Positions 29,383 to 32,516 of a stretch of DNA of 64,000 bases are shown piece by piece. The stretch is from Candidatus Brockarchaeota archaeon (GTDB lineage: Archaea; Thermoproteota; EX4484-205; JAAOZO01). The notes under the pieces are model-generated. The model saw nothing but the letters and a program-made list of their open reading frames with translations. It did no database searches and was not told the DNA's origin. How positions within the stretch are numbered: the stretch's first letter is position 1; the number at the start of each line of letters is the position of its first letter. The position numbers and the translations under genes were made by a program. The stretch is from assembly GCA_017601145.1 (NCBI GenBank), contig JAFNIV010000003.1:8769-72768 (forward strand), read 5' to 3'.

Positions 29383-29612
29383 AATTTTTAGTTTTTACAC
29401 CTTTTTCTCGCTCTAAATAAAGAGACAGAAATACCTAAGGAACTGAAAAATCTATGCTAGATAGATAAAGACAATTTTTCTAAAATTAACTTTTAACTTT
29501 AAAAAACATAATAAGTGCTCCGGGCGGGGGAGAGACTCTCCTCTCAGAGTTACGTCTGAAAAAAGCCTTTTTTCAATTTTGGAGGCTGAAACGGGATTTT
29601 CGACTTTAAGGG

Positions 29613-29885
29613 TTAAGGCGCTCTAGCGACAACCTTTAGGAAAACAGACGATTGCATCTGAACCTCTTCAACCCATCCGCGCCTAACGGAGGATTTCAAT
29701 GTGCCTTTCCACGTTCCGCCCTTGAGGTGCGTCGTCGCTTTCAGCTTTGAAACCGTAACCGCGCGTCCATCCTTCTTAGCAGCCAATAACGCCTTGAGAA
29801 GCCTTATCCTCCCACGGCTTCCAAGGACCTCTTCAGCCTCTTCACCAGCCAATCTGTTCACCCTTCTGCATAGTCGCCAGAACAC
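29613..29885 (-). CDS. small winged-helix DNA-binding protein (island I)
   Basis: GSRGRIRLLKALLAAKKDGRAVTVSKLKATTHLKGGTWKGTLKSSVRRGWVEE looks like an ArsR/MarR-type wHTH. The start is uncertain. Confidence 0.4.
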   Translation of the reverse strand: MFWRLCRRVNRLAGEEAEEVLGSRGRIRLLKALLAAKKDGRAVTVSKLKATTHLKGGTWKGTLKSSVRRGWVEEVQMQSSVFLKVVARAP

Positions 29886-30034
29886 GGCTGAGGTCTTTAA
29901 CTAGCTTTTGGTCGTTTGAGAGCATCGCTGAGTCTGCTTCAACGCGGCCAGGATTCGTTACTTGGAAAAGGGCGAAAACCTTGGCTTGAAACCACTGGAA
30001 GCGCCGCAAAAGCCAAGCAGAGCGCACCAGAGGA

Positions 30035-31687
30035 CTATTGCTCGATAAAGAGAATTCCTAAACGCCCATCGCCTCCGACTAATGCAAATTTTCCGTCGGA
30101 ACTTACAGCTAAGCCTCCTTCAGTGGGTCTATAGCAATAATGTTCCTCAATTACCTTATGGTTTGAAACCGAAACTATGCTTACTTTGTCATGGCTTCTT
30201 ACTAATAGAAACCGGCCGTCCGGCGTGATTACCATGCTGTCCATGCCAGCCTCTGAGACATTATAGTTCAGCGTTGCTTCTATTTTGTTTGTCTCCATAT
30301 TCCACCACCAAATGTACCCCCTGGAGGCCCCCATGTCTACTAGCACCAAGGCATGTTTGTTATCGGGCATAAGCTCCATGTCCCAAGGTCCAGAATTGCA
30401 CTTGGTGAAGACAGTGCGTTTAGCGATGGCCTTTGCTGCCAGATCTATTTTCTCAATGAAGCCCCCGGTGAGGGTTTCTCCAGACGCTCCCTTGAATTCT
30501 CCGGTGAAGCAACCAACGTATAGGAAGGCTCCATCAGGAGATACGGCGTACGGGGTAACAGGATTGCTGGTGAGGGTTGCGCGCTCATATACATGGATGT
30601 AGTCGACAACGTGAGCTGAGGGCACATCCAAGACGGATATTACATAATCAATATAGTCGCGAATATGAATTGGATTCAGCAAATCATTGCAAAGGTAGGC
30701 GATGTTGCTATTCGGCGCCACCAAGACATGTTCTGACAAGGGTATAATGTCAGGGATATCATATACGATTTTGCTGACGGCAAACGTGTTTAGATCAAGG
30801 GTATAGCTGTTTCTTGCAGCTGCAATCACAGCATATCTACTGTCATATGTTATTGCAACTCCAGACCTTGCGATGCCTGGCAAAGTAATGTTGGCTATGA
30901 TGTGCGGGGGGTCTGTTAAGGATATGACTGCAACGCTATCTTTTAAACTGTAGGTGACAACGGCCTTAGTGTTATCTGGTGCAACTGCCACATGCGATAT
31001 TTTGTCGCTTACAATTATGGATGTTGTAAACCAGTTAGGAGTATTTGACGCCGTAACGTTTCCCCACTCGTTCACGGCGAACATCCTATAATAGTATTTT
31101 TTTAACGCCTCCAGTGCAACCTCTACTGTGTGCTCTCTAGCATCCGCATCGAACTCTTTTCTATAAACAATCGTGTCACCGAACTGTGGTGTAGTTGCAA
31201 TCTCTAAAATGTATTTGTCGGCATAACGAGATTTTTGCCATCCGAAATATGGCGTTGGTCTTAAGTTGATGCTCTCCGGTTCTATATCAACTACACTGAA
31301 TAGTAAAGGTGGGCCCGGAGTCTTTACACAGATACTGCCGCCAGTTGCGCTGTTGCCACTACCATCTCGCGATATTGGTACGACATAGTAATAGGTGTGG
31401 AAAGCAAGGTCTGTAAGCCTATATGTGTGCTGTAGCGTAAGCGTACTGTTTTCCTGCAAGTGTACGTAATCAGTTTCCTTCTCGCTTCTATACATTACCT
31501 GAGTAGTTGCAGGCTCATCGGTTATCCAAGAAATTATAAATGAGGTGGGAGTTATGTTAGAAACGGTTACGTTCTCAATATTTGGCGGTGTTTTATCCTC
31601 AGAAAGATAATAGAAGCCAGCAATCGCCCCAACTGCAACCAACACAGCTATAATCACTATGGGAACATTTTTCATACCTACATCCAA
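30035..31687 (-). CDS. membrane-anchored surface protein with FN3-like domains and a YVTN/beta-propeller region
   Basis: N-terminal TM (VPIVIIAVLVAVGAIAGFYYL). FN3-like VSNITPTSFIISWITDEPATTQVMY. Repeated ..VSPDG..LYV / ..ITPDGRFLLV / AVSSDGKFALV blades. Alternative ATG at 31675. Confidence 0.65.
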   Translation of the reverse strand: MDVGMKNVPIVIIAVLVAVGAIAGFYYLSEDKTPPNIENVTVSNITPTSFIISWITDEPATTQVMYRSEKETDYVHLQENSTLTLQHTYRLTDLAFHTYYYVVPISRDGSGNSATGGSICVKTPGPPLLFSVVDIEPESINLRPTPYFGWQKSRYADKYILEIATTPQFGDTIVYRKEFDADAREHTVEVALEALKKYYYRMFAVNEWGNVTASNTPNWFTTSIIVSDKISHVAVAPDNTKAVVTYSLKDSVAVISLTDPPHIIANITLPGIARSGVAITYDSRYAVIAAARNSYTLDLNTFAVSKIVYDIPDIIPLSEHVLVAPNSNIAYLCNDLLNPIHIRDYIDYVISVLDVPSAHVVDYIHVYERATLTSNPVTPYAVSPDGAFLYVGCFTGEFKGASGETLTGGFIEKIDLAAKAIAKRTVFTKCNSGPWDMELMPDNKHALVLVDMGASRGYIWWWNMETNKIEATLNYNVSEAGMDSMVITPDGRFLLVRSHDKVSIVSVSNHKVIEEHYCYRPTEGGLAVSSDGKFALVGGDGRLGILFIEQ

Positions 31688-31702
31688 TGTTATATGAACC
31701 TG

Positions 31703-31718
31703 TATATAAATTTATATA
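31703..31718. promoter_or_regulatory. perfect 16-bp AT palindrome TATATAAATTTATATA upstream of the surface protein gene (TATA-box candidate)
   Basis: Lies 16-43 nt upstream of the two candidate starts (31687/31675) on the minus strand. Confidence 0.35.
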
Positions 31719-31919
31719 AATTTTATGCGCCAATGGAGAGGTGGTCCCCCTCTTTAGATGGGTGCTAACATTGCTGAAGGGGGGAAGTTGGAAGCCATTA
31801 ACTCATAGGAAACAACCTTCTCCTTCAACTTTCTTTTCAGCCATCCTCGCACCGTTAAGAACGGTTAAGATTTCGAAGTTGGACTGATGGAAATGGTTTC
31901 GTGATCACCTTTTAGTACA

Positions 31920-32261
31920 TTAATGTACAAAGAATTTAGGGCATGCTTTCGACGCTTTTTCCGCCCATACGCAGTTTTGCGCCACCGAGAGGCTCTCGTT
32001 TTCTGAAGGCTGTTTGTTCTGTGTGCTGTTTATCCACGTCACGATGCGCTCCACGGCCTTCCTCGTTGCGGCCGCGGGGTCAAAGTCCATAGCCCTTAGA
32101 ATTGTTATTAAGTGGCCTGCATATTTGGCCAAGGATGCCTTGGAGAGGCTGAAAGACGCTATATGGTCGAGGAAGGATAACGCCAGTGCACCGTGTTTCA
32201 GCCCCGCAATTACCCTTCTATAACGCCCTATCGCAACGTCAAAGTTGTATATTTCATCCAT
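31920..32261 (-). pseudogene. tyrosine recombinase/integrase, N-terminal SAM-like domain only (catalytic domain missing)
   Basis: LSFLDHIASFSLSKASLAKYAGHLITILRAM..DPAAATRKAVERIVTWI fits the integrase N-terminal core-binding pattern. The ORF stops after 113 aa, with no R..HxxR..Y domain downstream. Confidence 0.5.
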
Positions 32262-32331
32262 TTCTCCATCGGAAATGGATTGTCGCGTAGGCTTAAAAGT
32301 GGGGGGAAGAGAATTGAACCCGAGTTGTAGG

Positions 32332-32450
32332 TGCTCCGGCCGGGACTTTCACCTCCTAAGTTTTGAACCCGGGTATCGAGCTTTCTTCAGCCATTCCTCG
32401 AGAGGCTCGAATGCTTTCGGCCTAGGATAACCGGACTACATCACCGGAGC
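32332..32450 (-). tRNA. tRNA-Glu (anticodon CUC) with three putative introns (D-arm 13 nt, canonical 37/38 16 nt, T-loop 59/60 16 nt)
   Basis: Minus-strand read: GCTCCGG TG ATGT AGTCCGGTTA TC[CTAGGCCGAAAGC]AT T CGAGC CTCTCG[AGGAATGGCTGAAGAA]A GCTCG ATAC CCGGG TTCAAA[ACTTAGGAGGTGAAAG]T CCCGG CCGGAGC A. The spliced product is a 74-nt cloverleaf resembling archaeal tRNA-Glu as I recall it. Confidence 0.75.
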
Positions 32451-32516
32451 ACTAACCAAAGCTAGAAGTAAAGGTTTTTATATTTTTCTTCTAGCGTTTT
32501 TAAATTAAAACTGAAA

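Follow-up and report, generated by a model that had tools for sequence, protein, structure and literature searches.

A tRNA-Glu(CUC) gene with three predicted endonuclease-type introns in a Brockarchaeota genome

Introduction

Archaeal tRNA genes can carry up to three introns, and the phyla known for multiple non-canonical introns are the Crenarchaeota and Thaumarchaeota (PMC8450103; PMC4033280), for the latter of which a specific bulge-helix-bulge (BHB) model exists in tRNAscan-SE 2.0 (PMC8450103). The closest described systems are those of the Thermoproteales, which have a mean of 0.84 introns per gene, with 71 introns in 46 genes in P. calidifontis (PMC8450103). According to the sources on Pyrobaculum, Thermofilum and Caldivirga (Sugahara et al. 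2008, via PMC4033280 and PMC8450103), their tRNA genes have up to three short introns with BHB or relaxed bulge-helix-loop (BHL) motifs at canonical and non-canonical sites, are missed by standard gene finders, and occur in hosts with an endonuclease of the alpha-beta type.

The tRNA-Glu(CUC) gene of a Candidatus Brockarchaeota archaeon described here resembles these genes in all of these respects, with a predicted endonuclease of the alpha-beta type, and the intron density of its genome (~1.0 per gene) is likewise similar. Unlike the Thermoproteales, this lineage has congeners that were deposited as 'Thaumarchaeota archaeon' and 'Nitrososphaera sp.' MAGs, its GC content is ~33%, and its introns are strongly biased towards one non-canonical site, 59/60 in the T-loop, which is occupied in 15 of 41 genes. 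The families of intron sequences shared across unrelated tRNAs that are described for the Thermoproteales have left no clear sign here beyond one resemblance between Thr and Leu introns.

Two other systems are comparable. The pre-tRNA-Thr of Aeropyrum pernix also has a D-loop intron, which is processed by an (alpha-beta)2 EndA (Hirata et al. 2011, PMC3241643; structure 3P1Z), as is predicted here. Among the Thaumarchaeota, Cenarchaeum symbiosum has a BHL intron in pre-tRNA-Tyr, and like the present genome this group has relaxed BHL motifs, AT-rich DNA against which the tRNA exons are GC-rich, and an alpha2-beta2 endonuclease, which is a prediction in our case. The order studied here nevertheless differs from the complete Nitrosopumilus-like genomes sampled, with which it has the 'same phylum' only in common.

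Methods

The window is the whole stretch of DNA that was analysed, 64,000 nt of contig JAFNIV010000003.1 (positions 8,769 to 72,768 of the forward strand; NCBI GenBank assembly GCA_017601145.1). The assembly (genome G000) comprises 1.62 Mb in 55 contigs and is 86.5% complete. Genes were read with a parser that follows the tRNA cloverleaf and jumps over any BHB-compatible segment. Under its pairing rule, exon bases -6 to -3 of the 5' cut pair with intron bases -6 to -3 of the 3' cut to form the central helix (H), which is flanked by 3-nt bulges cut after the second base and by the outer helices h (exon/exon) and h' (intron/intron). The genome-wide census was performed with an acceptor-plus-T-stem seed search followed by this BHB-aware parser, with a score of at least 20 required. 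Orthologues were sought by BLAST of the 119-nt gene against 61 genomes.

Results

Anatomy of the gene

The gene is divided into the following features.

32332..32450, minus strand: tRNA-Glu(CUC) gene, 119 nt; four exons (75 nt) and three introns (44 nt)
32428..32450, minus strand: exon 1, 23 nt; acceptor 5' strand, U8 G9, D-stem 5' strand AUGU, D-loop to 20b
32416..32427, minus strand: intron 1, 12 nt (UCCUAGGCCGAA); D-loop 20b/21, relaxed bulge-helix-loop
32399..32415, minus strand: exon 2, 17 nt; A21, D-stem 3' strand GCAU, U26, anticodon stem 5' strand, loop CUCUCG to 37
32383..32398, minus strand: intron 2, 16 nt (AGGAAUGGCUGAAGAA); canonical 37/38, hBHBh' with 3-4-3 geometry and one C.A mismatch
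32362..32382, minus strand: exon 3, 21 nt; A38, anticodon stem 3' strand, variable region AUAC, T-stem 5' strand, T-loop UUCAAA to 59
32346..32361, minus strand: intron 3, 16 nt (ACUUAGGAGGUGAAAG); T-loop 59/60, perfect hBHBh'
32332..32345, minus strand: exon 4, 14 nt; U60, T-stem 3' strand, acceptor 3' strand, discriminator A73

The gene runs from 32450 to 32332 on the minus strand; its 119 nt begin with GCUCCGG-UG-AUGU-AGUCCGG and end with CCCGG-CCGGAGC-A, and CCA is not encoded. Following splicing in silico, the 75-nt product is called tRNA-Glu(ctc) by ARAGORN and is read by the parser as a canonical cloverleaf with a 7-bp acceptor stem, a 4-bp D-stem, and anticodon and T stems of 5 bp each. 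The conserved positions U8, A14, G18-G19, U33 and purine 37 are kept, together with the anticodon CUC and the loop UUCAAAU. A preliminary description of this DNA, made from the sequence alone, had proposed a tRNA-Glu(CUC) interrupted by three introns, and the ARAGORN call and the motifs at each junction bear this out. Its statement that three excisions leave a normal cloverleaf was also correct, but the mature length is 75 nt and not the 74 nt given there, owing to the D-loop cut discussed below.

At the unspliced locus no call was made by ARAGORN, with or without its intron mode, and no Rfam tRNA match was returned at the gathering threshold or at E values of up to 10. The failure to reach the RF00005 gathering score of 29 bits is expected because of the three inserts. 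The window contains four other tRNAs (Arg GCG, Arg CCG, Val CAC and Gly UCC), which are each 74-77 nt long according to ARAGORN and align with the Rfam tRNA model over its full length; they are therefore intron-less, as had been noted before. The minimum free energy (MFE) fold of the 119-mer contains the 7-bp acceptor, the D-stem AUGU/GCAU, the anticodon stem CGAGC/GCUCG and the T-stem CCGGG/CCCGG, with additional hairpins within the D, anticodon and T loops. The z-score of this fold is only -1.74, so thermodynamics by itself is unpersuasive.

The parser returned a single best parse, with introns at pre-tRNA positions 24-35 (12 nt), 53-68 (16 nt) and 90-105 (16 nt) and H/h/h' pair counts of 4/1/1, 3/5/2 and 4/5/3, respectively. 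All three pairs of junctions form a BHB or an accepted relaxed BHL, including those in the D-arm and T-loop, whose folding had been suggested as a check. The 16-nt introns at 37/38 and 59/60 are exactly where the preliminary description had put them. For the former, H has three of four pairs, h' has two and the outer helix h at least five (five or six, according to how far pairs are counted). The C.A mismatch in this central helix is found within genus g1 (G000 and its congeners), whereas in the other genera (g2, G004 and family f3) the helix has 4/4 pairs in the same register. At 59/60 the geometry is perfect: U54-U55-C56-A57 pairs with UGAA of the intron (H 4/4), the bulges are AA/A and AG/U (the slash marks the cut), the T-stem serves as h (5 pairs) and h' is a 3-bp hairpin.

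No second or intron-less copy of tRNA-Glu(CUC), as the preliminary description had considered might exist elsewhere, was found by BLAST and the parser census in the 86.5%-complete assembly. Judged from its sequence, the locus at 32332-32450 is a true gene for tRNA-Glu(CUC), interrupted by three introns of the predicted endonuclease type. It is very probably the genome's tRNA-Glu(CUC) gene, from which the introns at 20b/21, 37/38 and 59/60 would be spliced to give the 75-nt tRNA.

Placement of the D-loop intron

When intron 1 is cut after pre-tRNA nt 23 (Sprinzl 20b/21), its central helix has 4/4 pairs, with C17a-G18-G19-U20 paired to GCCG of the intron. The 5' cut falls within an 8-nt hairpin loop and the 3' cut in the 3-nt strand AA/A between H and the D-stem. 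This is the weakest motif of the three, as its outer helices have 1 bp per side.

The preliminary description had instead placed an intron of 13 nt within the D-stem 3' strand (22/23 or 23/24), leaving a 74-nt tRNA with the D-stem 3' strand UCAU. The product resembles a generic archaeal tRNA-Glu as given there, and it too is called tRNA-Glu(ctc) by ARAGORN; as the program accepts the 74-nt and 75-nt products alike, it is unable to choose between the two models of the D region. The pairing does distinguish them, since cuts at 22/23, at 23/24 and in a 21/22 variant retain only 1, 1 and 2 of the four central pairs, compared to 4/4 for the 12-nt D-loop intron. In addition, the 13-nt rule cannot be applied to G004, G006 and G010, because no UC precedes their insert.

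Orthologues without the intron give an independent view of the same region. The order also includes genus g6, in which the Glu(CUC) gene of 15 species is 75 nt long and free of introns. Its D arm is GUGU-AGCCCGGUCAA-GCAU, with CAA followed by GCAU and an 11-nt D-loop. The gene of G010 is 91 nt long, and after removal of its 16-nt insert by the cut rule it is identical base for base to the intron-less genes of g6. The D-loop cut is thereby validated, with an 11-nt D-loop, GCAU and a 75-nt tRNA. As A residues flank the junction, the cut could shift by one base with the product unchanged; among the equivalent positions, BHB geometry selects 20b/21. We regard a 13-nt intron in the D-stem as highly improbable.

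A further reading is that two introns only are removed and the 12-nt insert is kept in the mature tRNA as an enlarged D-loop, which would fit the weakness of its motif with the 1-bp outer helices. It would mean a 23-nt D-loop with G18-G19 paired away, for which we know of no precedent. The insert is moreover absent from 15 orthologues of otherwise identical sequence, its central helix covaries, and the catalytic EndA of this genome has the loop lysine needed for bulge-helix-loop cleavage (PMC3241643), so that retention is very hard to credit. A 12-nt D-loop intron that is removed with the other two is the reading followed below.

Conservation and variation among orthologues

Across the 61 genomes, BLAST detected full-length orthologues in both congeners (G001 and G002) and in three other species of the family, and the matches in another three families of the order were partial; Glu(CUC) orthologues are present in at least ten related genomes. 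The exons are identical at 75/75 positions across G000, G001 and G002, while the flanks are 82-85% identical. In the anticodon-loop and T-loop introns, no more than 10-14 of 15-16 aligned positions agree among these three genomes and the lengths differ, and the D-loop intron is the same in G000 and G002, with two changes of 13 in G001. Despite this divergence every motif helix is kept in all three, and the first h' pair of the 37/38 intron covaries in the congeners, from G.U to A-U. The D-loop central helix also shows compensatory changes, pair 1 being C-G in most orthologues and A-U in family f3, and pair 4 being U.G, C-G or U-A.

Exon structure stays constant while intron content varies along the tree. 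All three introns (D-loop, 37/38 and 59/60) are present in genus g1. Genus g2 (G003 and G005) has the D-loop and 37/38 introns together with a 19-nt intron at 53/54 (H 4/4, h' 4), which replaces that at 59/60; G004 has the D-loop and 37/38 introns only, and G006 and G010 have the D-loop intron only.

The locus could alternatively be a decaying pseudogene with random inserts, perhaps tied to the adjoining integrated element, given that it borders a degraded integrated block and is missed by standard finders; this is most unlikely in view of the perfect exon identity over three species whose flanks diverge by 15-18%, the BHB/BHL pairing kept by all inserts with compensatory changes, the same introns in congeners that lack the island, the conserved promoter box, and the status of the gene as the only Glu(CUC) found in the assembly. 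A working tRNA-Glu(CUC) gene is probable from these comparisons.

Two groups of orthologues deserve separate mention. In family f3, two loci (L009, G007:C203; L010, G009:C124) carry a 168-nt Glu(CUC) gene with introns at 20b/21, 37/38 and 59/60 and an extra insertion of 52-53 nt after D-loop nt 15, which holds a degenerate second copy of the D-loop. The BHB at this insertion is weak (H 3/4, no outer helices) and the parser did not resolve it. If it is a separate intron, the f3 gene is possibly a four-intron gene, above the maximum of three given in reviews. In genus g6 (L025, L026 and L043), the D-loop intron is present in the Glu(CUC) gene of G010 and in a gene of G008 with a UUC anticodon, the exons being otherwise identical, and is absent from 15 other species and from the Glu(CUC) gene of G008 itself. 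This distribution is read as an intron recently gained or lost at one fixed site.

Promoter and flanking sequences

A TATA-like box is located upstream of the gene.

32476..32483, minus strand: TATA-like box ATATAAAA, 26-33 nt upstream of the mature 5' end, with a purine-rich stretch before it

Both G001 and G002 have AAAAATATAAAA at this distance from the gene, and the box in G003 and G005 is similar. The preliminary description had placed an AT-rich promoter about 27 nt upstream; this corresponds to ATATAAAA at -33 to -26, a putative promoter element that is conserved in the congeners.

The 3' end of the gene directly abuts a block of different composition.

29395..32331, no strand: GC-richer block, ~2.9 kb, directly 3' of the tRNA gene
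29516..29528, plus strand: partial copy of the last exon, 13 nt, TGCUCCGG(G/C)CGGG, next to the original spacer

The GC content of the block is 0.42-0.47 compared to ~0.30-0.35 in the backbone. BLAST showed that the tRNA gene is linked to a thermosome gene via ~130 nt in G001 and G002, and via 2,936 bp (29395-32330) in G000; as the congeners lack the block, it is an insertion, and the earlier remark that the gene sits at the border of a GC-rich island agrees with this. Oligo-T tracts occur within 10-30 nt downstream of the gene in the congeners, and the first T-run in G000 is ~33 nt downstream. The oligo-T tract present after the gene in the congeners has thus been lost in G000 through the island insertion. 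The thermosome gene, next to the island, has 90% identity to proteins from MAGs deposited as 'Thaumarchaeota archaeon SJ3.Bin70' and 'Nitrososphaera sp. MAG7'.

Of the 13 nt in the repeat, 12 are identical to the 14-nt last exon of the tRNA, and its end coincides with the start of the T-loop intron. According to one idea, introns protect tRNA genes against the integration of mobile elements. From this att-like repeat, the last exon alone seems to have sufficed for integration despite the introns.

Splicing enzymes and proposed processing

Two matches to tRNA_int_endo (EndA paralogues) were found in the assembly.

L001 1471-2040, minus strand: catalytic EndA, 189 aa; 1.5e-46 to the A. pernix EndA catalytic chain (3P1Z_B)
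L002 1477-2001, minus strand: EndA paralogue, 174 aa; best alignment to M. jannaschii EndA

The 189-aa protein keeps all three catalytic residues, Tyr (in FAVY), His (in YDHAPF) and Lys (in VKKKF), and its K45/K47 align to K44/R46 of the Crenarchaea-specific loop. This loop confers cleavage of D-loop BHB/BHL introns, with K44 as the recognition residue (Hirata et al. 2011, PMC3241643). The 174-aa paralogue keeps Tyr115 and Lys156 and has Thr at the position of His125, which is what a structural subunit would look like. It is closer to M. jannaschii EndA than to the A. pernix beta chain. The search for a heterotetrameric-type endonuclease that the preliminary description had proposed thus yielded one paralogue with the triad and the broad-specificity loop, and one that is His-less, and because both are present a heterotetrameric EndA is plausible in this genome. 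An RtcB is also present in the assembly (5e-176).

We infer the quaternary structure of the enzyme, and likewise transcription, cleavage and ligation, from these sequences. Transcription probably starts from an archaeal TATA/BRE promoter and yields a pre-tRNA with a leader, a trailer and ~119 nt between them. The acceptor, D, anticodon and T stems would already be formed in this pre-tRNA, with each insert folding with neighbouring exon bases into a splicing motif. A two-subunit endonuclease of the alpha-beta type with the lysine of the Crenarchaea-specific loop would cut all six sites, after which RtcB would join the four exons into the 75-nt tRNA and CCA would be added. The D-loop and T-loop introns are predicted to sequester G18-G19 and U54-C56, the bases of the tRNA elbow, so the L-shape would be possible only after splicing.

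tRNA introns across the genome

Of roughly 45 tRNA genes in this genome, 27-28 were recovered by ARAGORN and Rfam. The census parsed 41 genes, with 17 lacking introns, ten having one, 11 having two and three having three, which amounts to ~41 introns in 41 genes, or ~1.0 per gene; these totals are approximate as the parser failed on Gly(GCC) and Cys(GCA). Ten solutions with four 'introns' had scores below 20 and were discarded as spurious. Introns are present in about half of the genome's tRNA genes, and the interrupted gene, which had stood out beside its four intron-less neighbours in the preliminary description, is not exceptional in its own genome.

The T-loop site 59/60 is occupied in 15/41 genes, and all of these introns have H 4/4 on U54-A57 and an h of 5; examples are C1:31033-31138, C33:79872-79975 and C55:14182-14270. 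Two other genes with three introns are a tRNA-Trp(CCA) of 175 nt (C2:41476-41650, plus strand; introns of 28, 53 and 19 nt) and a tRNA with a CAU anticodon of 130 nt (C55:50765-50894, minus strand; introns of 17, 22 and 17 nt). In each of the two tRNA-Gln genes, an intron lies at 10/11. The Glu(UUC) gene (C11:106044-106135) has one 16-nt D-loop intron, at a position unlike that in Glu(CUC). Introns in Thr(GGU), Thr(CGU) and Leu(CAA) share a ACGAUUGCGAAA-like core, which hints at copying between genes.

A tRNA-His was not found in the 86.5%-complete assembly by any of the methods used; it may either be on unassembled DNA or be hidden by a structure that the seeds miss. A repeat of ~150 nt, which starts with GGAGGTCTTGCCCTCAGCAGGCGT and ends with CAGCTTTCGCAGGGGGACTTCCC, lies at or near many contig ends (C2, C3, C7, C25, C32, C46 and C49) and is probably a multi-copy element that breaks the assembly.

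Discussion

The gene is of a known kind, a multi-intron tRNA gene in the style of the Thermoproteales, and multi-intron tRNAs as a phenomenon are already well described in other archaeal lineages. Our literature search found no published account of tRNA introns in Brockarchaeota, and as far as that search reached the gene is new in this lineage. As pipelines based on ARAGORN and Rfam find 27-28 of roughly 45 tRNA genes, MAGs of this kind falsely look tRNA-poor.

Within a single order, orthologues of one tRNA have no, one, two or three introns and form a clean series of gain and loss at defined positions. This series may be used for calibrating BHB/BHL predictors and for studying the co-evolution of relaxed motifs and the endonuclease loop.

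Turnover is visible in the exchange of 59/60 for 53/54 between genera, in the D-loop intron, which only some members of one genus have, and in the possible four-intron gene of f3. It is possible, though we would not yet call it probable, that the order underwent its own burst of tRNA introns on the scale of the Thermoproteales, focused on 59/60 (15/41) and with turnover ongoing, and that the integration in the last exon is a natural test of intron shielding. If this is true, the genus would provide a direct natural test of how far introns limit the integration of elements, and integration would have occurred regardless, in the last exon.
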